Virus record (IMG/VR): IMGVR_UViG_2711768023_000006
Length of the DNA: 46,501 nucleotides
Direction: 5' to 3' (one strand)
From: a virus
Taxonomy: Duplodnaviria > Heunggongvirae > Uroviricota > Caudoviricetes
Shown: positions 34,422-46,192 of the stretch, piece after piece
Layout of the letters: each line of letters starts with the position of its first letter
Numbering within the stretch: position 1 is the stretch's first letter
Made by a program: the position numbers and the translations under genes
Notes under the pieces: model-generated
The model's input: only the letters and a program-made list of their open reading frames with translations
Databases searched by the model: none
Told to the model about the DNA's origin: nothing

Positions 34422-35302
34422 TGTTTCATGTTGATAATAATTCCGGCGTGGCGAATATGCCTGCGCTGGCACCGGCGCAGAGTAATACCACCACCTGGTT
34501 TACCGAAGGTGACGGACAAAAAGGTATCAGCTGGATTGGTCAGGACTGGCTGAATATTCTCCAGGCCGAACTGCTGAATATTCTGGCTGAAGCCAGTATT
34601 CAGCCGGATAAGGCGCAGTTAAACCAGCTTACGCTGTCCATTAAAGCCATTATCGCTGCGAATGCCTTTTCCCGGAAAAATAACCTGAAAGAAATTGCTG
34701 ATGCCGGTGCGGAGGCCCAGCGTCTGGCCCGTGGTTATCTTGGTCTGGGGACGCTTGCCACAAAAAACAGTCTTGGTCCCGCTGACGTTAATGCCCTGGC
34801 GAAGGATCAGAATCTCGCCGACCTGGAGAATAAGGGAACCGCCCGTAATAATCTGGATGTTTACAGCAAAAGCGAAGGTGATAACCGTTACCTGCGCAGG
34901 GAGCAGAACGGCGCAGACATTCCGGATAAAGGGGCTTTTATCGATAACGTCGGTTTACGGGAAACGGTAAACAGGGCGGCGAATGCCCTGCCATCGGACG
35001 GCACCGCCGTTGCCGCGAACAGGCTGGCAAATGCCCACACAATTAATGGTGTTCCCTTTGACGGGACGCAGGATATCACTATCTCATCAGGAACAGTAAC
35101 CGCCATAAGACTGGGGTCGGTGACCGCACATATGCCCGGAACATGGGAAAGCTGGGATCTGAATCTGGGGGGCGGCAATGTTCTTACCGGAATTAAAGTA
35201 CAGGATGTCGGTAAGAATACGGCAGATAACGTCGGCGGCGTGTATTACCGGCCGTTGCAGTATCTGTTAAATGGAGCATGGGTGACGGCTGCAAGTATAT
35301 AA
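34421..35302 (+). CDS. S: Tail fibre protein S (constant N-terminus plus currently expressed variable C-terminus)
   Basis: 293 aa; codons 173-181 span a gix-like recombination site; downstream part lies in invertible segment. Confidence 0.75.
34938..34963. other. Left invertase crossover site (gix/hix-like, 26 bp) inside S
   Basis: TTATCGATAACGTCGGTTTACGGGAA, imperfect dyad with central TC; inverse partner at 36255-36280. Confidence 0.6.
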
Positions 35303-35906: not shown

Positions 35907-36268
35907 TTATAACTGAGATACCGTAATCCATGTACCTCCGACTAATTTTTGCAGGGGTCTGAATGCTATAAAATCGTTTGAAGCATCAACTTTACTGTCA
36001 ATCTGCAGGCCTGCCATAACATTACCGTACGCAGAGTAATATGCCCCACCGTACATTACCTGCCTGTTCTCTGCTCCCAGCCTGATATCCTGGATATATC
36101 GGGAATCCGCATCCTGCTGTGTTATACCAGAAGTGATGTTTATGTCCTGCGTCCCGTCAAAGGGAACCCCATTAATATTTCTTGGGGTGGCGAGTCTATT
36201 CGCGGCAACGGCGGTGCCGTCCGATGGCAGAGCATTCGCCGCCCTGTTTACCGTTTCCCGTAAACCGA
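35907..36268 (-). other. Silent alternative tail-fibre C-terminal cassette (Sv')
   Basis: Minus-strand frame ...[60 protein letters not shown]...GGTWITVSQL*; first ~45 codons near-identical to S codons 178-222, no start codon, in-frame stop just upstream of repeat. Confidence 0.65.
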
Positions 36269-36280
36269 GGTTTTCAGGAA
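36255..36280. other. Right invertase crossover site (gix/hix-like, 26 bp)
   Basis: TTCCCGTAAACCGAGGTTTTCAGGAA, very close to recalled Mu gix sequence; central GA is reverse complement of left-site core. Confidence 0.65.
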
Positions 36281-36345
36281 AGCCAGGATTAACTCTGTTT
36301 TATTCCTCATGCGACAATTCCGGCTTTTTATAATAAGGAAATCGT

Positions 36346-36918
36346 ATGCTGATTGGGTATATCAGGGTGTCAACAAATGACCAGAATACGGCGCTACAAA
36401 GAAATGCGCTGGAATGTGCAGGATGTGAGCTGTTTTTCGAAGACAGAATAAGCGGTAAGACAAGGGAGCGTCCCGGACTTAAACGCGCATTAAAGCGACT
36501 CCGGCCAGGGGATACCCTGCTGGTCTGGAAACTGGATCGCCTTGGACGCAGTATGCAGCACCTTGTCCTTTTAACAGAAGAACTCCGGCAACGCGGCGTT
36601 AACTTCCGCAGCATTACGGACAATATTGATACATCCACTCCCATGGGACGTTTCTTTTTCCATATAATGGGCGCGCTGGCGGAAATGGAGCGGGAACTCA
36701 TTATTGAACGTACACGCGCGGGTCTTGCTGCTGCCCGTGCTCAGGGGCGTCATGGCGGCAGACCTCAGAAACTGACAGAGAAAGAGCGGGAGCAAATCGC
36801 CCGTTTGCTGGCTAATGGCGAGTCCCGTAAACAAATCGCACTGATATTTGATATTGGCCTTTCCACCCTTTATCGTTATTTTCCTGCCTCACCAGCTCCG
36901 TCACCAAAAGTACCGTGA
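36346..36918 (+). CDS. gin: Serine recombinase, DNA invertase Gin/Hin/Pin family
   Basis: MLIGYIRVSTNDQNTALQRNALECAGCE...GDTLLVWKLDRLGRSMQHL...MGRFFFHIMGALAEMERELIIERT, near-identical motifs to Gin. Confidence 0.95.
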   Translation: MLIGYIRVSTNDQNTALQRNALECAGCELFFEDRISGKTRERPGLKRALKRLRPGDTLLVWKLDRLGRSMQHLVLLTEELRQRGVNFRSITDNIDTSTPMGRFFFHIMGALAEMERELIIERTRAGLAAARAQGRHGGRPQKLTEKEREQIARLLANGESRKQIALIFDIGLSTLYRYFPASPAPSPKVP

Positions 36919-37003: not shown

Positions 37004-39058
37004 ATGTCAGACTCCAAGTGGAAAATGCTCTCCGCCATGCCCGGAGAGTTTTCAGTCAAGGTTGCCGGTGGCACGGTGGCATTTATTGAAAGCCCTTTCC
37101 GCCCTTCGGGTAATAAAGGGGGGATCACCTTCGCAGACTGCGTGATCCGCTTCAGCACGAAAGAGCCATTATGGGTAATGCCGGTATCCGGTAATCCCAG
37201 TGCAGAAATCACCAGTTCAGGCGTGACTGGCATCATTCCAATCACATCTGACGTGGCCGGAACGCTCACGCCCTCCGACTGGAATGCACCGGATAACGCC
37301 GGGCCTTCCGGTAGCACGAATGGCAGCAGTTCAGAGCCGGAATATTACTTTGTTGTCATTCTCGCGGGTCAGTCAAATGGCATGGCCTACGGCGAGGGGC
37401 TGCCGTTACCGGATTCGTTTGACCGCCCGGACCCACGCATTAAGCAACTGGCACGCCGCAGTACGGTAACGCCCAACGGTACGTCGTGTACATACAACGA
37501 CATCATTCCGGCAGACCACTGCCTGCATGATGTTCAGGATATGAGCGGGATAAACCACCCGAAAGCTGATCTGGCAAAAGGCCAGTACGGGACTGTCGGT
37601 CAGGGGTTGCATATTGCCAAAAAACTGCTTCCCTATATCCCACAGAATGCCGGGATACTTCTGGTGCCCTGTTGTCGTGGCGGGTCAGCATTCACCACTG
37701 GAGCCGACGGCTCATTCAGTGAGGCCAGCGGTGCTTCCGCTGATTCTTCACGCTGGGGGGCCGGTAAACCTCTGTATCAGGACCTGGTAAGCCGCACCAA
37801 AGTCGCGCTGGCGAAAAACCCGAAAAACAAACTTCTGGCTGTGGTCTGGATGCAGGGAGAGGCAGACCTTGCCTCAGGAAGCCAGCAGCATAATAGTTTA
37901 TTCACGGCCATGGTTCAGCAGTTCAGAACTGACCTGGCTCCGCTTGCTGCGCAGTGCGTGAGTGGAAATGCCACCACGGTGCCGTGGATTTGCGGTGATA
38001 CCACGTATTACTGGAAAAACGCTGGCACCGATAAATATGAGGCAGTATACGGTGGCTACAAAGGCAAGGAAGCACAGAAAATTTTCTTTGTACCGTTCCT
38101 GACGGATGAGAATGGACAGAGCACGCCAACGAATGCTCCGGCGGAAGACCCGGATATTGTGGCTGTCGGGTATTACGGTGCAGCATCCCGAACCCAGGGC
38201 AGTTTTGTTTCGACACAGCGTGACAGCCATTTCAGCTCATGGGCACGCAGGGGCGTCATTTCAGACCGTCTGGCCTCAGCTATTATGCTCCATGCAGGGC
38301 GCACGGCTGAACTGATGCGTGGGCAGACCGTGACACCACCGGATGAGAAGCCGTCACCTGATACACCATCAAAACCGTCCACGCCACCCGCAGACACCAC
38401 GACGATGAGTACGCTATTTGCTTACCGGGCATCTGAGTCTGAAGGACGGTTGACACCACAGGGTTGGGCTGCCGGAGGTGGCAAGGCTCAAATCGTGGAT
38501 GATGCCGGAGCCAGCGGGGGTAAGGCAATGAAACTGACCAAGGAAACAGGAAGAGCCCCCTGGTACCTTGAGCATGATGCTGGTAATGGTGCGGACCTGC
38601 TGGGTAAAGGTGGTCTTGTCAGTTGTCGTTTTAAACTCGATGGCGCGCTTACGGCTAATCAGTACGCACTGGCGCTGTACTGGCCGGTTTCTGCCCTGCC
38701 GCAAGGGGTTACTCTGGAAGGAAATGCCGGTCATAACCTGCTGGCATCGTTCTACGTACAGAGCGATGCCACAGACCTTAACGTGATGTATCACAAAGGA
38801 AACACGGCGCAGAACACGAAGCTGGGGTCATTCGGCGCATTTAATAACGAATGGCATACGCTGGGCTTCCGTTTTGCCGGTAACAACAGTATTGAGGTGA
38901 CGCCGGTCATTGATGGTAAGGACGGGACACCATTCATGCTGTCGCAGTCTCCGGTCGGCACGTTTACGGCAGACAAGTTGCGCGTGACCGATATCACTAA
39001 AAATGCGACTTACCCGGTACTGATTGACAGTATCGTGGTGGAAGTGAATAACGCGTAA
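37004..39058 (+). CDS. SGNH/sialate-O-acetylesterase-like hydrolase with Pro/Thr linker and C-terminal beta-rich domain
   Basis: 684 aa; GQSNGMAYGEG block with catalytic Ser, downstream RDSH (Asp/His) block; linker PPDEKPSPDTPSKPSTPPADTTT; no signal peptide evident. Confidence 0.6.
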   Translation: MSDSKWKMLSAMPGEFSVKVAGGTVAFIESPFRPSGNKGGITFADCVIRFSTKEPLWVMPVSGNPSAEITSSGVTGIIPITSDVAGTLTPSDWNAPDNAGPSGSTNGSSSEPEYYFVVILAGQSNGMAYGEGLPLPDSFDRPDPRIKQLARRSTVTPNGTSCTYNDIIPADHCLHDVQDMSGINHPKADLAKGQYGTVGQGLHIAKKLLPYIPQNAGILLVPCCRGGSAFTTGADGSFSEASGASADSSRWGAGKPLYQDLVSRTKVALAKNPKNKLLAVVWMQGEADLASGSQQHNSLFTAMVQQFRTDLAPLAAQCVSGNATTVPWICGDTTYYWKNAGTDKYEAVYGGYKGKEAQKIFFVPFLTDENGQSTPTNAPAEDPDIVAVGYYGAASRTQGSFVSTQRDSHFSSWARRGVISDRLASAIMLHAGRTAELMRGQTVTPPDEKPSPDTPSKPSTPPADTTTMSTLFAYRASESEGRLTPQGWAAGGGKAQIVDDAGASGGKAMKLTKETGRAPWYLEHDAGNGADLLGKGGLVSCRFKLDGALTANQYALALYWPVSALPQGVTLEGNAGHNLLASFYVQSDATDLNVMYHKGNTAQNTKLGSFGAFNNEWHTLGFRFAGNNSIEVTPVIDGKDGTPFMLSQSPVGTFTADKLRVTDITKNATYPVLIDSIVVEVNNA

Positions 39059-39202
39059 GCAGGATAAAAAAATGCCGCCGGTAAGGGAAAACAAGAAACC
39101 GGCGGCAAAAAGATCGTTATATCCAAAGCAAAAAATGCAGTGCACCTTTTTACCTAACAGATATTACCGGTGTCAACACCATGTCAATAATTGGGAGGGA
39201 TA

Positions 39203-39385
39203 ATGACATTTTTACAGCTTATTTTATTGTATTTCTGCACGGCAGTATGTGCGTTATATCTGGTGAGTGGTGGTTATAAGGCCATCAGAAATTATGTTCG
39301 CCGCAAAATTGAGGACGCAGCAGCTGAAAAACTCAGTAAAACAGCGCAGGTAACTCCGCTCCCAAAAGACCCGACCCAGCCCTGA
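39203..39385 (+). CDS. Small membrane protein
   Basis: MTFLQLILLYFCTAVCALYLVSGG TM segment; RBS GGGAGGG before ATG 39203. Confidence 0.45.
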   Translation: MTFLQLILLYFCTAVCALYLVSGGYKAIRNYVRRKIEDAAAEKLSKTAQVTPLPKDPTQP

Positions 39386-39420
39386 TTGCAGGGCTTTATT
39401 CCCGCATAAGGAGGATATAC

Positions 39421-39675
39421 ATGCCAGAAATTAAAGGCACCGTCACTGAAGACCTGGTAAAACAGGCACTGTATTCCGGTGAAGTAAATAAGTTGCTGAA
39501 AGCGCAGGTCCGCAAGGATTTTGAGGCACAAATCGACACTTACGTTGATGAAGTGCTGGCAAAACTTATTGGGCCAGCAGTTGCGGCCAGTGATGCTGAT
39601 AATGAGCCGAAAACCGACGCGCAGCCAGAGCAACCAGACCCGGCTCAGCCCGGAACTGACAGTACCATGATGTAA
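39421..39675 (+). CDS. hypothetical acidic protein
   Basis: 84 aa with strong RBS AAGGAGG. Confidence 0.5.
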   Translation: MPEIKGTVTEDLVKQALYSGEVNKLLKAQVRKDFEAQIDTYVDEVLAKLIGPAVAASDADNEPKTDAQPEQPDPAQPGTDSTMM

Positions 39676-39842
39676 CAATACAAACCGGTGGTGTCCTCTG
39701 CCGGTTTGACACTAATGAAAACATCTTTGCCGCTATCCAGCCATATGTAATCGCTGGATAGTATTTCGTATTCAGAAATATAGCTGCTTATGGAGCAGTC
39801 AATCCTGCTTCCCCATCCGGGCAGGCAAATGAACCGGTATCA

Positions 39843-40136
39843 TTAGTCCGATTCACGCTTTTGTAGAATCGTTCCCAGAATGCTATACAGCTCATTAGCC
39901 TGTTGCTCCATCATTGAGACGGAGGCTATACGGTGCAAAGTGATTTCAGGAGGTGGCACACCTCCATCTTCTTGCTGTGGAGGAAAAACATAAGATTTAA
40001 TAAAAAAGTTGAAGCATATGAACTCTCCCGCACTCGAACTGTATTTGCAGGCATCTGAATAATCGGAAAAATAATCATTATAGATTTCCGCATTTTCAAT
40101 CATTTTTCGATTTCTCGTCGTTACATGATTGTCCAT
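39843..40136 (-). CDS. hypothetical protein, divergent from com-mom
   Basis: 97-aa minus-strand ORF; AT-rich intergenic region shared with com-mom. Confidence 0.4.
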   Translation of the reverse strand: MDNHVTTRNRKMIENAEIYNDYFSDYSDACKYSSSAGEFICFNFFIKSYVFPPQQEDGGVPPPEITLHRIASVSMMEQQANELYSILGTILQKRESD

Positions 40137-40254
40137 AGCAGCCTCTTACGCTGGCAATTAACCAATTGACTTCTATAAATTAGTTGATTTGTTTGCTTTG
40201 CGGTATTCAAATGTACAATCATTCAGCACTTATGCGTTACAGCACCGTTTAAAA

Positions 40255-40392
40255 TTAGTGATCAAACTCATAAATTTTCGCTAATGACATTTCGTGTTAT
40301 TTGTTGTATCAATTAAATAAATCAAATCGATCGTTTTTGTCGATCGATTGAGTGATAAAGATATCAACAACAAAGCAGGAGGTTATGCGGCC
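40255..40392 (+). promoter_or_regulatory. com-mom upstream regulatory region with GATC cluster
   Basis: GATC at 40260-40263, 40329-40332 and 40342-40345 upstream of com start. Confidence 0.45.
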
Positions 40393-40593
40393 ATGTATCG
40401 AAACATACGGTGCCGACATTGTAACAAGCTACTGGCACGAGCCAGCTTCAGTTATCTGGAAGTTAAATGTCCGCGCTGTAAAACCCTCAATCAAATCACA
40501 TCTCAGAGCGCCACAGAGCACCCCACATACACAAGGAAATCCTGTCGTGGGGAACAGAAAGCAAGTTACATCCCGTATCATCAGCACGCCTGA
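40393..40593 (+). CDS. com: Com-like zinc-finger translational activator of mom
   Basis: [17 protein letters not shown]...VKCPRCKT resembles Mu Com (MKSIRCKNCNKLL...RCPRCK); RBS AGGAGG; overlaps mom. Confidence 0.7.
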
Positions 40594-41284
40594 ACTTATT
40601 CACTATAACGACAATATCGTCGGTTATGGCTCCCGTGAGTTACGGGTTGAGACAATAAGTTGCTGGCTGGCCCGGCTGGTCGTCGTCAATAAACATTACA
40701 GCCATCGTTTCGTAAATAATTCCTACCTTCATCTGGGCATATTTTCAGAACGGGAGCTGGTTGGCGTAATGCAATGGGGTTATGCCCTTAATCCAAACAA
40801 TGGTGCACGCGTCGTAACTGGCACGCAGAACCGCGAATATATGGAGCTTAACCGGTTATGGCTGCATGACTGTATGCCGAGAAACTCCGAATCAAGGGCA
40901 ATCAGTTACGCGCTCAAACTAATCAGACAACTTTATCCGCAGGTGCAGTGGGTTCAGTCGTTTGCAGATGAGCGTTGTGGCTGTCTTGGTGTCGTGTACC
41001 AGGCAAGCAATTTTGATTATGTAGGCAGTCATGAAACAACATTCTATGAACTTGATGGCGAGTGGTATCACGAGATTTGCAAGAATGCAATCAAACGAGG
41101 AGGACAGCGAGGTGAACATCTGCGGGCTAATATCGACAGAGCCAGTGTTCATAAATTCCGTCAGTTTCGTTACATCCGGTTTCTGGACAAGAGAGCCAGA
41201 AAACGCCTTAACACAAAGCTATTCAAAGTCCAGCCTTACCCAAAACCACAAACAGTTAAAACTGGTTTGAAAGAGAGTGAATGA
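40547..41284 (+). CDS. mom: Mom-like DNA modification enzyme (adenine modification); start uncertain
   Basis: ...[43 protein letters not shown]...[11 protein letters not shown]...[23 protein letters not shown] matches Mu Mom; GTG at 40547 with RBS AAGGA; ORF extends upstream to 40352. Confidence 0.8.
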
Positions 41285-41324: not shown

Positions 41325-41412
41325 GATTTAGTATCAAATAAGTTGCGTATCGGCGTTTTTCAGCGGTATCAAATGAAATGCAAATCGGTATCAAAAAAAT
41401 CGCCGCGCTATA
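41325..41412 (+). promoter_or_regulatory. Prophage right end (attR) with three inverted transposase-binding-like repeats
   Basis: CGGTATCAAA at 41364-41373 and 41386-41395, variant AGTATCAAA at 41330-41338; terminal ...GCGCTATA mirrors left terminal TATAACC. Confidence 0.6.
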
Positions 41413-41998
41413 GACAGCCTAAGCGGCTGCTGACCTCCCTGACCATGCTGTAAATCTCTTTATCCTGGTTGTCACAGAATAAGCCCGGTAAAATACGGGC
41501 TTATGAACGACATCTCTTCTGACGACATCTTCCTGCTGAAACAGCGCCTTGCCGAACGTCAGTTGAAAACGAAACCGCTGCTGAAATCCCTGGAAAGCTG
41601 GCTGCGTGAAAAGATGAAAACCCTGTCGCGACACTCAGAACTGGCGAAAGCGTTCGCATACGCCCTGAACCAGTGGCCGGCGCTGACGTACTATGCAGAT
41701 GATGGCTGGGCTGAGGCGGACAATAACATCGCTGAAAATGCGTTGCGGATGGTCAGTCTGGGCCGCAAAAACTACCTGTTCTTCGGTTCGGATCATGGAG
41801 GAGAGCGGGGAGCGCTGCTGTACAGCCTGATCGGGACGTGCAAACTGAACGGAGTGGAGCCAGAAAGCTACCTCCGCTATGTCCTTGACGTCATAGCCGA
41901 CTGGCCGATAAACCGGGTCGGCGAACTGCTCCCCTGGCGCGTAGCACTGCCGACTGAATAACACATTCCCGTCAATACGGTTCTTGCTGCACGCTTAC
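41413..41998 (+). mobile_element. IS66-family element, right portion (tnpB 3' end, internally deleted tnpC, right terminus)
   Basis: QPKRLLTSLTML* at 41415-41453; tnpC remnant; ends ...CACGCTTAC, complementary to the IS66-family GTAAGCG terminal motif. Confidence 0.7.
41503..41961 (+). pseudogene. IS66 tnpC, internally deleted (N-terminal leader fused to C-terminal ~130 aa)
   Basis: ...MKTLSRHSELAKAFAYALNQW...DNNIAENALRMVSLGRKNYLFFGSDHGGERGALLYSLIGTCKLNGVEPESYLRYVL...LLPW matches transposase C-terminus only; 152 aa versus ~520 expected. Confidence 0.75.
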
Positions 41999-42014: not shown

Positions 42015-43187
42015 GTGGTGATGCACACTGTTGCTGATGTGATGACAGGAAACGATGGTGAATACTGTTTCCATGCGCGGACTGGAAAATATGGTGTGTA
42101 TCTGAAACCGGGCTGGCACAACGAGTACAACGTTGGCGACATTGCTGTATATGAGGACTCAAAGCCCGGCACGCTGAATGACTTTCTGATTGCTCCTGAT
42201 GAGGGCGACCTGAAACCGGATGTCGTCAAACGCTTTGAGGAAATGGTGGCGCAGGCGCAGCAGAGCGCCGGGGCCGCAGCCGGAAACGCACAGCAGACGG
42301 CGCAGGATGTGGCGGCAGCCGCAGGTTATGCCCGCGCAGCAGAGCAGGCCAAAAATGACATTGATGCTGCGCTGACCGGCACTCTGAAAACGGCTAACCA
42401 TCTGTCTGAAATCGCAGCAGCAGGCGAAAAGGCACAACAGAAGTCCCGGGATAATCTGGGGCTGAAAAGTGCGGCCACGATGGAAGCACAGAGCGACATT
42501 TACGACCGGACAAAAGGCCGTCTGGCGATACCCGGCGCATTCGGCTTTGGGTGTGCTTTTCTGCCTGAAGATGTTATCCGTTTTGACACTAAGAGTGATT
42601 TCCTGGCCTGGGTAAGGAATGCGCTGCCAGGTGAATATTCCGTTGCTGGCCCCTACGACATCATCATACCCGACACACGGTTTGAAGGGGTGCTCAGCAT
42701 CCGGTGGACTGATGCACGCCCTGAGACAACAGAACCGAGGTACAGAGCCAAATCCCTTACTTTTTACGGCATTAACGGCCCCATTTATCACACCCGCTAC
42801 TGCTACTGGCCCATATCCAGACTGACTGGCTGGGTGAAAATAAATATAACCACAGAAGATATTATTTACAGAATCGTGGCGAGCTCTGTCTGCAACAGAT
42901 GGGGAGACCCTGACATTGGCGGGCTGATTATTGCTGCGTACCAGGGAGAAGCTGACGGTGATAAAGTCATCAGACTTGTCAGGGGGCAGTCATACAGAGG
43001 CTCACGACTGGGACCGGTGGGGATTTCAGTGCCCAGTACTCCCACCGGAACGTATATAGCATCCCCACAATTTTTCATTACGGGATGTTCAGAGCATTCA
43101 TTACCGGGGTCATATTGCGCCCTGTCCGGGGTGCCGGATGCTCATGTCTCTGGCGCAATGCCCGGGCTTTTTATTCGCACATCGTGA
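42015..43187 (+). pseudogene. 5'-truncated phage tail fibre gene (second prophage remnant)
   Basis: Tail-fibre-like C-terminal region with Ala/Gln-rich coiled segment; ORF begins right at IS66 end; followed by Tfa. Confidence 0.55.
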
Positions 43188-43197
43188 GGAATGCACC

Positions 43198-43761
43198 GTG
43201 GAAATTAAAAAAATCATTAATCCCCGTTATACCGAAAGTGGCGCAGTAGACTGTGACGTTTTTTTTGACGACAGGGACCAGGCAGTCCCCTACACAGCCA
43301 CCGCTGATGATGTCGCACCGACGGGTCAGCGAATCTGGCAGGAACTGCAAAGTGGCAAATGGGGTGAGATAGCCCCATTCACTGTGACACCAGAAATGCT
43401 GGAAGCGGCCAGAGAGGCCAGACGTCAGGAAATTGAAGCATGGCGCACAGAACAGGAGGCGAAGCCGTTCACGTTTGAATGGAACGGTCGTATCTGGAAT
43501 GCTGGCCCCAACTCACTGGGCCGCCTGTCCCCGGTAGTCATGCTGGCAAAATCTGTCACAGCACAAACACATATGGCGTGGAGCGATGCCGATAATCAGC
43601 AGGTGAAACTGTCGATGCCGGAACTGGAAGAACTGGCGGCAGCAATGGTGCAGGCGCAGGTCGATCGCAACGATGAGATTTATCGCCGTCAGCGTGAAAT
43701 GAAAGAGGAGCTGAGCAGTCTGGATGATTTGGCTTCAATTCGGGCGTTTGACGTTAAGTAA
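43198..43761 (+). CDS. Tail fibre assembly protein (Tfa)
   Basis: GTG at 43198 with RBS TGAGGA; VEIKKIINPRYTESGAVDCDVFFDD... typical Tfa N-terminus. Confidence 0.65.
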   Translation: MEIKKIINPRYTESGAVDCDVFFDDRDQAVPYTATADDVAPTGQRIWQELQSGKWGEIAPFTVTPEMLEAAREARRQEIEAWRTEQEAKPFTFEWNGRIWNAGPNSLGRLSPVVMLAKSVTAQTHMAWSDADNQQVKLSMPELEELAAAMVQAQVDRNDEIYRRQREMKEELSSLDDLASIRAFDVK

Positions 43762-43858
43762 TGAATAAGCCGCAACTGGCGGAATCACAGAAGACCGCTT
43801 TGCTTACCGAGGCGGAGTCTGTCATCCGGCCGCGGGGGCGTGCTGTCAGGCTGAACAN

Positions 43859-44404
43859 CTACAGCACCAAATCAGGTCTGGGTGGCGGACCTGACGTATG
43901 TTGCCACACAGGAGGGATGGTTGTACCTCGCTGGCATCAAAGATGTTTATACGTGCGAAATTGTCGGCTACGCCATGGGAGAGCGCATGACAAAAGAGCT
44001 GACAGGTAAAGCCCTGTTTATGGCGCTCAGGAGCCAGCGCCCACCTGCCGGGCTAATCCACCACTCTGATCGAGGTTCACAGTACTGCGCATACGATTAC
44101 CGGGTCATACAGGAGCAGTCTGGTCTGAAAACATCAATGTCGCGTAAAGGTAACTGTTACGACAACGCTCCGATGGAAAGCTTCTGGGGAACGCTGAAAA
44201 ATGAGAGCCTGAGCCACTATCGTTTTAATAACCGGGATGAAGCCATCTCAGTAATACGGGAATACATTGAGATTTTCTACAATCGTCAGCGTCGTCACTC
44301 TCGTCTGGGGAATATCTCCCCGGCAGCCTTCAGGGAAAAATATCATCAGATGGCTGCTTAAAAAAAGAACAAATGGTAGTGTCCGCTATTGCCAGTACAC
44401 CTCA
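43859..44404 (+). mobile_element. IS600 partial copy (3' 546 bp) after N at 43858
   Basis: Identical to 1667-2212 of first copy incl. orfB C-terminus and terminal ...GCCAGTACACCTCA. Confidence 0.85.
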
Positions 44405-44476: not shown

Positions 44477-46192
44477 TTATGAATGGTGCAGTTGTGAGCC
44501 GTTTTCAGACAATCGCAGGGCCAGTACCTCGTCAGTCAGCTGACGGTAAATCTGCTGTTCAGTCTCACGCATCACCTGTGCACCGGCTTCCCTCTCCGCA
44601 TCCGCATCACCGCTCAGACCTGATGCTTTCAGCCGGTCAGCCACCCTCTGAGGGTACTCATTCTCCAGCATCTCATATTTCTGCTCTTCTGCCAGCGCCC
44701 AGCGGTCAGCTTCCGTACGCTTCAGTACAGCATGCCATGGTCCCCAGAGGGAGAACCAGTCCGTAAATTCATTCTCTTCACGGCTTCTGACCATGGCTTC
44801 GGCAGTGCGGAGGTCATTTGCTGTCACTCCCGACACGCCATAGAAACGCATTTCCTTCACGGCAGTGGAGAGCTGAAGTTTCTCTGCGAGCATGGTCTGG
44901 AAGGCCAGGTAGACTTCTATCTCATCCACAAAATGGAGAGTTCTGACTTTATCCCGGGCAATGTCCTCCAGAATTTCGAGGCGGAACATTTCCCTGCCCA
45001 GGGAGAGCAGAGCGCCGGTATCATTATCGAAAAGGCCTTCTGATGCCTGATGGACCAGGAGGGTTTTCCGGAGATTGTTCCATGTGAGCGCGACACGGTC
45101 CTCACAGCTCTCAGTGGCATCAGCAGCAACAGCGAAAGACTGCTGTCGAAGCTCCGCAGAGGCACTGAGTTTTTCCAGCCATGCAGCGACCTGTTCACGG
45201 AATCCGGAGGTATTGCGTGCAGAGACGGTATCGGAAAGGCGGTCAAGGAACGCGGAAAAGGTGTTGGCGTGCTCTTCATGTTCAAAAGCATGCCATATCT
45301 GTGATACATCAGATTGTTTGTTTTCCGGGAACCATGCTGTCACGGCATCAGCCAGGGGGCGATGGAGTGTATTCTGTTGTCCGTCACTCATGGAGAAGTA
45401 AATCCGTGGGCCGTGGTAGTCCGGTTGGGCGGTTTGTTGCGACAGAGACTCCCTGATCCGTGAGGACAGAGGATTGTCTTCGAGGATGATAGTGCAGGTC
45501 GGATCAAGGCTAAGTATATTTTCCGGAATGTATGTGATGCGATTCTCGCGGCACCGGAAAAATATCTCGGTTTCCTCTGAGTGATGATTTCTTACAGGTA
45601 CGGCTGGTAGGCTTTCCAGAAGATTAGTACTTACATCGAGCGCTTCCAGTGATTCAGGTAACTCAGGGAGAAATGTCAGCTGGTTATTTCTTACTGAGAG
45701 CACTTCCAGCGATGTAGGTAATTCAGGAAGCATGGTTAGCTGATTGTTATCTGCATTAATATATTCCAGCAATGCAGGCAATTCAGGAAGCATGGTTAGT
45801 TGGTTGTTATCTACATCAAGATGTTTCAGAGATGCGGGTAATTCAGGAAGTGTTGACAGGTGATTGTCACAGGCGTCAAGGTATTCCAGCGATGCTGGCA
45901 ATTCTGGTAATGATATTAGGGCATTCTGAGTAATTTCCAGAACAGTGATTTGAGGTGGTAAGTTGTCAGGTAGCGAGGACAGATTTAAACGATTCAGTTG
46001 AAGCTCACTGAACTGATTGATGAGACATTCTTTAAGTAGGGAGACCGCTTCATTCCGATTTTCACCGGGGAGCGCTTGTTTTTCCCATTTATCCCATGCT
46101 GAAAAGTAATCAGCATATGTACCGGAAATAGTGTTATAAAAAGAATTTTGGGACAATGAAAAGTTATTATTTATCGGTAACATGATGGACAT
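44477..46192 (-). CDS. ipaH: IpaH-family type III secretion effector (LRR plus NEL E3 ubiquitin ligase domain)
   Basis: MLPINNNFSLSQNSFYNTISGTYADYFSAWDKWEKQALPGE..., LxxLPxLP leucine-rich repeats, conserved C-terminal NEL domain; canonical start probably at 46183. Confidence 0.93.
   Translation of the reverse strand: MSIMLPINNNFSLSQNSFYNTISGTYADYFSAWDKWEKQALPGENRNEAVSLLKECLINQFSELQLNRLNLSSLPDNLPPQITVLEITQNALISLPELPASLEYLDACDNHLSTLPELPASLKHLDVDNNQLTMLPELPALLEYINADNNQLTMLPELPTSLEVLSVRNNQLTFLPELPESLEALDVSTNLLESLPAVPVRNHHSEETEIFFRCRENRITYIPENILSLDPTCTIILEDNPLSSRIRESLSQQTAQPDYHGPRIYFSMSDGQQNTLHRPLADAVTAWFPENKQSDVSQIWHAFEHEEHANTFSAFLDRLSDTVSARNTSGFREQVAAWLEKLSASAELRQQSFAVAADATESCEDRVALTWNNLRKTLLVHQASEGLFDNDTGALLSLGREMFRLEILEDIARDKVRTLHFVDEIEVYLAFQTMLAEKLQLSTAVKEMRFYGVSGVTANDLRTAEAMVRSREENEFTDWFSLWGPWHAVLKRTEADRWALAEEQKYEMLENEYPQRVADRLKASGLSGDADAEREAGAQVMRETEQQIYRQLTDEVLALRLSENGSQLHHS

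Follow-up and report, generated by a model that had tools for sequence, protein, structure and literature searches.

A NanS-p esterase cassette with a predicted antisense small RNA gene, and a replaceable slot, between gin and com of a Mu-like prophage

A survey of Shiga toxin (Stx) 2a phages places open reading frames (ORFs) of the families DUF826 and DUF1378 between nanS-p and S (PMC10462455). Two small RNAs (sRNAs) of Escherichia coli O157 Sakai come from the minus strands of prophages and are listed in supplementary tables (PMC4104026): EcOnc33, from Sp6, was found by crosslinking and analysis of cDNA (CRAC) with Hfq, and a northern blot with probe AAATGTCGTTATATCCAAAGCAAAACATGCAGGAC showed it at about 71 nt; EcOnc37 comes from the Mu-like Sp18. 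In enteropathogenic E. coli (EPEC) E2348/69, the Hfq-dependent and northern-verified PasA and PasC are antisense RNAs immediately downstream of a prophage esterase gene (PMC8550237, table S6); both also appear in a 2026 preprint by Zhu, Shabalina and Storz. Here we examined positions 39059 to 40347 (the interval) of IMG/VR record IMGVR_UViG_2711768023_000006, a 46,501-nucleotide stretch of caudoviricete DNA that we call the window. There, the tail of a NanS-p cassette, a predicted antisense sRNA gene and a replaceable slot lie ahead of com and mom in a Mu-like prophage.

The window covers the right part of this prophage, with gin at 36346-36918, com at 40393-40593 and mom extending to 41284. 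The prophage ends at 41412, where homology with Mu-like copies at other chromosomal sites stops. A model's earlier description of the same DNA, made without database searches and called the sequence-only reading below, had treated the interval as one accessory block of three small genes, with a hairpin and without a Mu counterpart. All three ORFs and the hairpin lie at the coordinates it gave, and the lack of a counterpart is true of phage Mu itself, in which gin and com are 94 bp apart as against 3.47 kb in the window. The interval is nevertheless probably a composite of three parts, namely the distal half of a NanS-p cassette (39059-39708), an exchange slot (39708-40283) and the start of the mom operator (40284-40347). 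The two plus-strand ORFs are thus not part of one block with the third but the tail of a cassette whose main gene (37004-39058) falls outside the interval, and the right end of the interval, from 40284, is the mom operator. Most of the interval is already known or catalogued: it holds a cassette that is known, though the phage carrying it is a less familiar host, together with a catalogued sRNA that is unannotated. The cassette and the elements in its first spacer are as follows.

37004 to 39058, plus strand: gene assigned by homology to a NanS-p-type sialate 9-O-acetylesterase (684 aa); outside the interval, at the head of the cassette that holds DUF1378 and DUF826
39140 to 39066, minus strand: predicted Hfq-type sRNA gene of about 75 nt, EcOnc33 homologue, antisense in the NanS-p/DUF1378 spacer
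39073 to 39107, minus strand: predicted intrinsic terminator stem-loop of the sRNA (the hairpin of the sequence-only reading), followed by U7 at 39072-39066
39147 to 39176, minus strand: promoter-like elements for the sRNA (TTGACA at 39176-39171, 18-nt spacer, TAAAAA at 39152-39147)
39203 to 39385, plus strand: DUF1378 gene, 60-aa single-pass membrane protein (PF07125, phrog_494)
39421 to 39675, plus strand: DUF826 gene, 84-aa acidic protein (PF05696, phrog_311)

The 684-aa protein matched the Pfam families SASA (PF03629; 51.3 bits against a cut-off of 24.8, 1.5e-13) and DUF6645 (PF20350; 226.5 bits against a cut-off of 27, 7e-68). Against PDB, residues 110-428 matched NanS (3PT5, 1.8e-117) and residues 469-683 the NanS-p C-terminal domain (6YP6, 7.1e-98). 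The block I motif GQSN is visible in the translation, and the ratio of nonsynonymous to synonymous substitution rates (dN/dS) was 0.10. By these domain and structure matches, the product of 37004-39058 is assigned as a NanS-p-type sialate O-acetylesterase.

We compared gene order around the cassette across phage types. Lambdoid and Stx phages (O157 TR01, Sakai Sp6, VT2-Sakai, PhiR12_4 and 1720a-02) have Q or stx, NanS-p, DUF1378, DUF826 and holin S, and Mu-like prophages have gin, NanS-p, DUF1378, DUF826, a minus-strand gene, com, and then mom or a C5-methyltransferase gene. The Mu-like order, with gin where covered, was present in 30 of 30 IMG/VR loci reaching past DUF826; these belong to a set of 33 loci that is biased through its selection by DUF826, and in the other three the contig ends at DUF826, with slot and com out of view. 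The same order was found in L001, L003, L004 and L005 and in O157 Sakai Sp18, which is annotated as Mu-like. A search with the com-mom end alone found that end in 233 of 5426 complete E. coli genomes, and four of these, drawn at even steps down the ranking to offset the DUF826 selection bias, all had the cassette layout. Gene order remained unchanged while the esterase diverged to about 52% amino-acid identity. The cassette is therefore constant in the examined members of this Mu-like lineage (Sp18 type), and not sporadic cargo. It is also a portable unit, moving between unrelated phage types, lambdoid and Mu-like. One IMG/VR contig (L017, 1-7303) has a Mu-like right end (DUF826, orphan, com, mom) and, about 4 kb on, an inverted lambdoid NanS-p, DUF1378, DUF826 and holin; the two cassette versions it carries are therefore close enough together to recombine.

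As no plus-strand terminator lies between the three plus-strand genes (NanS-p, DUF1378 and DUF826) and each has its own Shine-Dalgarno sequence, they would be read as a single rightward transcript. A scan for consensus promoters returned fewer sites than expected by chance, none of which accounts for expression of the cassette. Megablast of the block against the phage collection gave no match, the relatives being too diverged; they were later reached by a wider query and a protein search. Literature searches under the old locus tags (L0106, L0107, Z1467 and ECs1208) returned unrelated papers only, and nothing was found that links nanS-p with Mu-like prophages or Sp18.

The earlier suggestion had been that such cargo serves exclusion, anti-defence or host modulation. 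A single independent accessory block of three small genes, placed at the phage end for superinfection exclusion or anti-defence, would fit the absence of the block from Mu itself and its position next to the DNA-modification (anti-restriction) module com-mom; exclusion factors are commonly small membrane proteins, and the slot beside com is variable, as are hotspots of defence and counter-defence. The plus-strand genes, however, always accompany NanS-p, lambdoid phages included, while the minus-strand gene is replaced independently, and within the lineage the block is constant rather than sporadic. A PADLOC-DB search with the four proteins gave no credible match, the best being DUF826 to PbeC at 12.9 bits (E 0.0076). 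We therefore consider this explanation highly improbable. Comparison of synteny, the check that the sequence-only reading had proposed, does bear out that the region is extra relative to Mu, but the plus-strand pair tracks NanS-p and not the minus-strand gene, and only the latter, which is replaced among relatives, behaves like variable cargo. While exclusion and anti-defence find no support, host modulation is plausible, as NanS-p esterases and prophage Hfq sRNAs act on host physiology.

The spacer between the esterase and DUF1378 genes, in which the window is homologous to lambdoid prophages, contains the hairpin that the sequence-only reading had reported. It lies 15 nt past the esterase stop codon. 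Its GC-rich stem of 10 bp pairs 39073-39082 with 39098-39107 around a loop of 15 nt, and compared with shuffled sequences its z-score is about -4 on both strands. On the plus strand it is preceded by seven A, which gives U7 after the stem on the minus strand; no T-run follows it on the plus strand, exactly as had been observed. Among 21 distinct versions of the spacer, 19 have an A-run and then a GC-rich stem directly after the esterase stop, and none has a plus-strand T-run after the hairpin. Stem and A-run persist in lambdoid as well as Mu-like versions, and the stem showed covariation, with compensatory changes at three pairs and 89% of cells paired, as compared with 22-55% when the partner was slid.

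Promoter-like elements lie beyond the hairpin on the minus strand. TTGAC occurs in 19 of the 21 distinct spacer types, the two types without it being also without the terminator, and it aligns with the TTGACA upstream of the mapped 5' ends of PasA and PasC. In the minus-strand alignment, TTGAC(A) is followed by an A-rich, -10-like element and by a CUGC start that matches the mapped PasA and PasC 5' ends. From this alignment we infer a promoter with a non-canonical -10 element and a start at 39140, 7 nt beyond TAAAAA. The predicted RNA folds into an open 5' part, the terminator and U7 (z = -4.6).

The EcOnc33 probe has an exact match in the spacer between the esterase and DUF1378 genes in both Sakai Sp6 and L002. 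The window aligns with the EcOnc33 locus over the whole unit, with one change in the first 27 nt and a shorter terminator loop. EcOnc37 presumably lies in the stop-proximal spacer between ECs_4993 and ECs_4994; this placement assumes a shift of about 128 bp between assembly versions, estimated from assembly lengths and cross-checked on EcOnc33. On the grounds of the probe mapping, the alignment with EcOnc33 and the position of EcOnc37, we read 39140-39066 (minus strand) as a predicted sRNA gene of about 75 nt, with the hairpin as its putative terminator and Hfq-binding 3' end. By homology with EcOnc33, the hairpin is thus no oddity but the likely terminator of a catalogued antisense sRNA, and neither Rfam nor genome annotation reports an sRNA gene here, in this prophage lineage or in O157 prophages.

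An Rfam scan had pointed to an sRNA at this site through a weak full-length match to the Esr41 model (39064-39146, minus strand). Membership of Esr41 (RF02676) was rejected: the score of 22.2 bits (E 0.7) fell far short of the threshold, which is 102, and Esr41 proper is encoded on SpLE1, a different locus.

The terminators of PasA and PasC in E2348/69 are of the same kind as that of the window, an A-run and a stem beside the esterase stop. When PasA, PasC and a second copy in PP2 were the only sequences in a covariance model, its best match in the window fell at the sRNA site, although the match was weak (15.9 bits, E 0.22), and related loci were mostly below the reporting threshold. A relationship with the Pas family may be suggested, tentatively, from position and architecture rather than from sequence statistics. 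In two lambdoid phages (L043, 2157-2224, and L044, 2197-2264), the same model also matched ahead of the esterase gene, on the minus strand, at 18.7 and 20.2 bits. This is the site, 3' of the moron coding sequence, where Tree et al. (PMC4104026) put convergent anti-sRNAs such as AsxR.

Several observations weigh against the assignment of an sRNA gene. The -10 element TAAAAA is poor. PasA is reportedly cut from a longer precursor, and the sRNA promoter may therefore lie elsewhere. Expression as a discrete RNA and binding to Hfq were recorded at the Sakai loci only; EcOnc33 and EcOnc37 are found in supplementary tables only, with no follow-up found in the literature, and a search of main texts for EcOnc33, EcOnc37, EcOnc51 and EcOnc52 returned nothing. 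The PasA seed is GCCAGCACC and shares positions with the terminator's 5' arm; it does not occur in the window, which has GCCGCCGGU instead, and by sequence and structure alone the link to PasA and PasC is weak, at the score given above.

In another explanation, this phage makes no sRNA, and the hairpin serves only to stabilise or process the 3' end of the esterase mRNA, or to block antisense transcription. Its position 15 nt after the esterase stop would suit such a role, as would the weak predicted -10 element and the 15.9 bits of the PasA/PasC model. In no version, however, is the U-run on the strand that would serve the esterase mRNA. In Sakai, the near-identical sequence is the site of a minus-strand RNA that binds Hfq and was verified by northern blot, a second minus-strand RNA maps in the Mu-like Sp18, and the 5' 27 nt are better conserved than the terminator loop, so that we judge a purely structural role of the hairpin improbable.

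If 39140-39066 is an sRNA gene, its transcript would start near 39140, end at the 39107-39073 stem and U7, and bind Hfq. The open, near-invariant 5' 27 nt may then act in trans on host mRNAs. The sRNA may also act in cis. Over its whole length it is complementary to the long mRNA at the junction of esterase and DUF1378, and it could thereby uncouple the esterase from the downstream genes.

Remote homology and structure searches, also proposed in the sequence-only reading, placed the two plus-strand ORFs of the interval in families and left the 97-aa minus-strand ORF without a family or a confident fold. The "small membrane protein" at 39203-39385 is indeed a 60-aa protein with an N-terminal hydrophobic segment, TFLQLILLYFCTAVCALYLVSGG, and then a basic tail (net +4). 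It belongs to DUF1378 (PF07125; 109.1 bits against a cut-off of 25, model positions 1-58 of 59) and to phrog_494 (1.3e-32), and by the positive-inside rule its basic C-terminal tail is probably cytoplasmic (N-terminus out, C-terminus in). A tblastn search found DUF1378 in 309 phage records, almost all Stx or lambdoid. Scanning genome contigs with the DUF1378 alignment confirmed only two loci, in Cedecea and E. ruysiae, the scan being too insensitive for taxonomic breadth with a 60-aa protein. The ORF at 39421-39675 encodes, as described earlier, an acidic 84-aa protein (net charge about -8) with a strong ribosome-binding site (AAGGAGG, 6 nt before the ATG). It belongs to DUF826 (PF05696; 58.7 bits against a cut-off of 25, model positions 1-58 of 75) and to phrog_311 (4.9e-28). 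Its AlphaFold2 model is one long helix, with a predicted local distance difference test score (pLDDT) around 90 at residues 20-50, followed by a disordered Pro/Gln/Asp tail below 50. Both phrog_494 and phrog_311 are catalogued without a function, and a PDB sequence search with the DUF826 and DUF1378 profiles gave nothing below E 0.3.

The dN/dS ratio was 0.14-0.30 for DUF1378 and 0.09-0.16 for DUF826. As gene order is kept despite the divergence of the esterase and these ratios are low, the two small genes are real and under purifying selection (dN/dS 0.09-0.30). The basic cytoplasmic tail of DUF1378 (+4) is a likely dock for the acidic, helical DUF826 (-8), and the two would then pair electrostatically.

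Both proteins might instead be lysis accessories, for example class II holin modulators, that are unlinked to the esterase and were carried along with its cassette from a lambdoid into a Mu-like phage. In lambdoid phages both genes are directly upstream of holin S, on the same transcript; DUF1378 is small and single-pass, resembling holin partners; and some EPEC prophages retain esterase, sRNA and holin without DUF1378 or DUF826. Yet in the Mu-like lineage the two genes are distant from the lysis genes, and they have stayed intact (at the dN/dS given above) across the divergence of the esterase to about 52% identity, whereas genes that were merely carried along should have decayed, as is often seen in the slot gene next to them. 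On balance we regard a lysis role as unlikely. The linkage of the cassette across phage types is the best available hint that DUF1378 and DUF826 act with the esterase or the sRNA rather than with the holin, and these are uncharacterised families present in hundreds of Stx phages. Two findings weigh against such a functional link and against the proposed pairing: the DUF genes are missing from the EPEC prophages PP2 and PP5, both of which have esterase and sRNA, and DUF1378 of Cedecea occurs without either partner (NanS-p or DUF826). In Cedecea neteri (L040, 4797-5804), the lone DUF1378 gene is found at a prophage end, with a tail-fibre gene on one side and a gene for a Dam-type adenine methyltransferase on the other.

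Beyond DUF826, the interval and the DNA that adjoins it contain the following features.

39681 to 39708, no strand assigned: hairpin closing the cassette, at the left edge of the variable slot (-16.7 kcal/mol, z = -2.5)
39708 to 40283, no strand assigned: replaceable, AT-rich slot (34-47% GC), delimited by blastn breakpoints
39843 to 40136, minus strand: 97-aa ORFan of slot type A, divergent from com, found in E. coli and Shigella only
40284 to 40392, plus strand: putative mom operator/promoter region and com ribosome-binding site, from alignment with Mu; conserved in all slot types
40393 to 40593 (com) and about 40547 to 41284 (mom), plus strand: overlapping com and mom genes (Pfam Zn_ribbon_Com, 1.3e-12, and Mom, 1.6e-77)

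The closing hairpin has its better U-rich tail on the minus strand, and in the CI5 allele it has Watson-Crick pairs where the window has G-U. In blastn alignments with slot types B and C, homology breaks off at 39704-39707 and picks up again at about 40284. Type A, that of the window, carries the 97-aa minus-strand gene and was found at 11 IMG/VR loci; type B (9 loci) carries a 78-aa plus-strand gene and minus-strand genes of 68 and 99 aa; and type C (10 loci) carries a minus-strand gene that frequently contains a frameshift and of which the intact form, exemplified by ECs_4996, encodes 154 aa. Every slot type seen has a leftward gene divergent from com.

The stretch 40284-40347 forms, judging by alignment with Mu, the start of a Dam/OxyR-type mom operator. 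A perfect palindrome, AATCGATCG-N7-CGATCGATT, at 40325-40349 contains GATC at 40329-40332 and 40342-40345, and of the three GATC sites that Mu has ahead of com, two align with this pair. The C-activator dyad TTAT-N6-ATAA, which in Mu-type mom operators stands between GATC sites and promoter, was not found upstream of com in the window. The dyad of that form at 39396-39409, TTATTCCCGCATAA, in the DUF1378-DUF826 spacer, was rejected as a Mu C site and attributed to chance: it is not conserved in the CI5, Sp18-type and lambdoid versions, and it is also wrongly placed for DUF826.

In Mu without the activator C, RNA polymerase binds momP2, a divergent promoter that overlaps Pmom (PMC3378877). A leftward promoter of this type would point at the slot genes, and the 97-aa gene may be transcribed from it. 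In Mu, momP2 is not known to have a product. The consensus scan gave no convincing sigma-70 site for a leftward promoter of the slot. One could go further and propose that the slot is a dedicated exchange site for leftward genes driven by a divergent promoter of the mom region, the counterpart of momP2. Such genes would be expressed while mom is silent (no C, OxyR bound), and the 97-aa, 154-aa and 99-aa products would be lysogen-expressed factors tied to DNA modification or counter-defence. We consider this proposal a long shot. An ORFan slot by the mom operator nevertheless offers a small, well-delimited place in which to seek new lysogen-expressed functions.

The ATG of the 97-aa ORF is preceded, at a distance of 5 nt, by AAGAGG; where E. 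coli carries identical copies, the Prokaryotic Genome Annotation Pipeline (PGAP) annotates an 86-aa version from an internal ATG at 40103. Near-identical proteins of E. coli and Shigella were its only homologues, nothing else matching among 1.84 billion representatives, and it has no Pfam, PHROG, NCBIfam or PADLOC family. AlphaFold2 gave a beta sheet and a C-terminal helix at a pLDDT of 59, for which Foldseek against PDB returned no match better than E 0.5, and no fold was assigned. In comparison with the CI5 allele, at 13% DNA divergence, dN/dS was 0.36, which is less constrained than the plus-strand ORFs. Frame, start and Shine-Dalgarno sequence are retained in the CI5 allele, in which conservation is also higher over the 190 bp upstream than in the 3' flank. 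We conclude that the ORF is probably a weakly constrained, uncharacterised gene. Against this, several alleles are frameshifted, and the only sigma-70 promoter that the consensus scan offered for the orphan starts inside the 97-aa ORF.

A non-functional ORF, decaying or arisen by chance in AT-rich recombination filler, would account for the absence of homologues beyond E. coli and Shigella, the low-confidence structure model, the weakest constraint in the region and the frameshifted or truncated alleles, and the slot type C counterpart is also often frameshifted. It would not account for the retention of frame, Shine-Dalgarno sequence and start, with dN below dS, in an allele as diverged as that of CI5, nor for the better conserved 190 bp upstream. 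A core, FIKSYVFPP...PPPE, and the C-terminal helix are also invariant across alleles. That the ORF lacks a function is therefore somewhat unlikely, though it deserves serious consideration, and we retain the reading as a weakly constrained gene.

Variation was also seen to the right of the operator. In L005 (23453-24505), as well as in L016, L027, L038 and H125, com is followed not by mom but by a gene for a 350-aa C-5 cytosine DNA methyltransferase (PF00145, 2e-42), so that different DNA-modification enzymes can apparently occupy the position under com control. In L001 (9335-9534; E. coli JE86-ST05), a copy otherwise 99.9% identical, com is annotated as frameshifted and the alignment has one indel, while com of the window is intact.

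Elsewhere in the window, two stretches of about 145 bp (34933-35076 and 36142-36284) match each other in inverted orientation on both sides of the variable tail-fibre region, immediately to the left of gin. The probable explanation is an invertible region like the G segment, with these stretches as its inverted repeats. An ISEc8/IS66-family insertion sequence (IS) fragment (41413-41961) directly abuts the right end of the prophage at 41413, and IS3-like transposase fragments lie at 43880-44360; the prophage is apparently set among IS remnants. Outside the Mu-like prophage, a tail-fibre-like ORF (390 aa) and an overlapping tail-fibre-assembly-like ORF (207 aa) at 42015-43761 are probably remnants of another prophage. 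The ORF at 43761-44009 has an ambiguous base that gives an X in the translation. A 571-aa ORF on the minus strand (44477-46192), with leucine-rich repeats and a C-terminal region of the IpaH effector type as judged by eye, suggests a Shigella-like or enteroinvasive host background.

In comparison with described systems, the window shares with the NanS-p moron cassette of Stx and lambdoid phages (933W, VT2-Sakai and Sakai Sp6; nanS-p, DUF1378, DUF826, S-R-Rz) three families in the same order and the conserved spacer with its A-run, hairpin and predicted antisense sRNA. It differs in that its copy is carried by a Mu-like phage, in the gin-com interval and not in the interval between Q or stx and the holin. 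By that location it is therefore not under Q antitermination; no lysis genes follow it, and it is closed by its own hairpin and then the variable slot. With the right end of Mu, where Pmom is controlled by Dam, OxyR and C, the window shares the order of gin, com, mom and phage end and the aligned GATC pair upstream of com, and it has a leftward gene where momP2 of Mu would point. Mu has three GATC sites, whereas the window has two, set in a perfect palindrome.

Among sRNAs, PasA and PasC share with the window the antisense site downstream of a prophage SASA esterase gene, the aligned TTGACA, the CUGC 5' start and the U-run terminator. They measure 79-85 nt, as compared with about 75 nt predicted here, the body of the window sRNA has diverged from theirs, and the EPEC prophages are without DUF1378 and DUF826. 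EcOnc33 and EcOnc37 have the same position and strand as the predicted window sRNA, antisense and just after the esterase stop. With EcOnc33 the window also shares a near-identical 5' 27 nt, an intrinsic terminator with a U-run and a similar size (about 75 nt predicted, about 71 nt on the northern blot), the terminator loop of the Sp6 version being longer. EcOnc37 comes from a Mu-like prophage of the window's own lineage, and its body differs from that of the window sRNA. As that body is unlike the Sp18 version and the spacer is Sp6-like, the window therefore combines an Sp18-like phage with an Sp6-like spacer.

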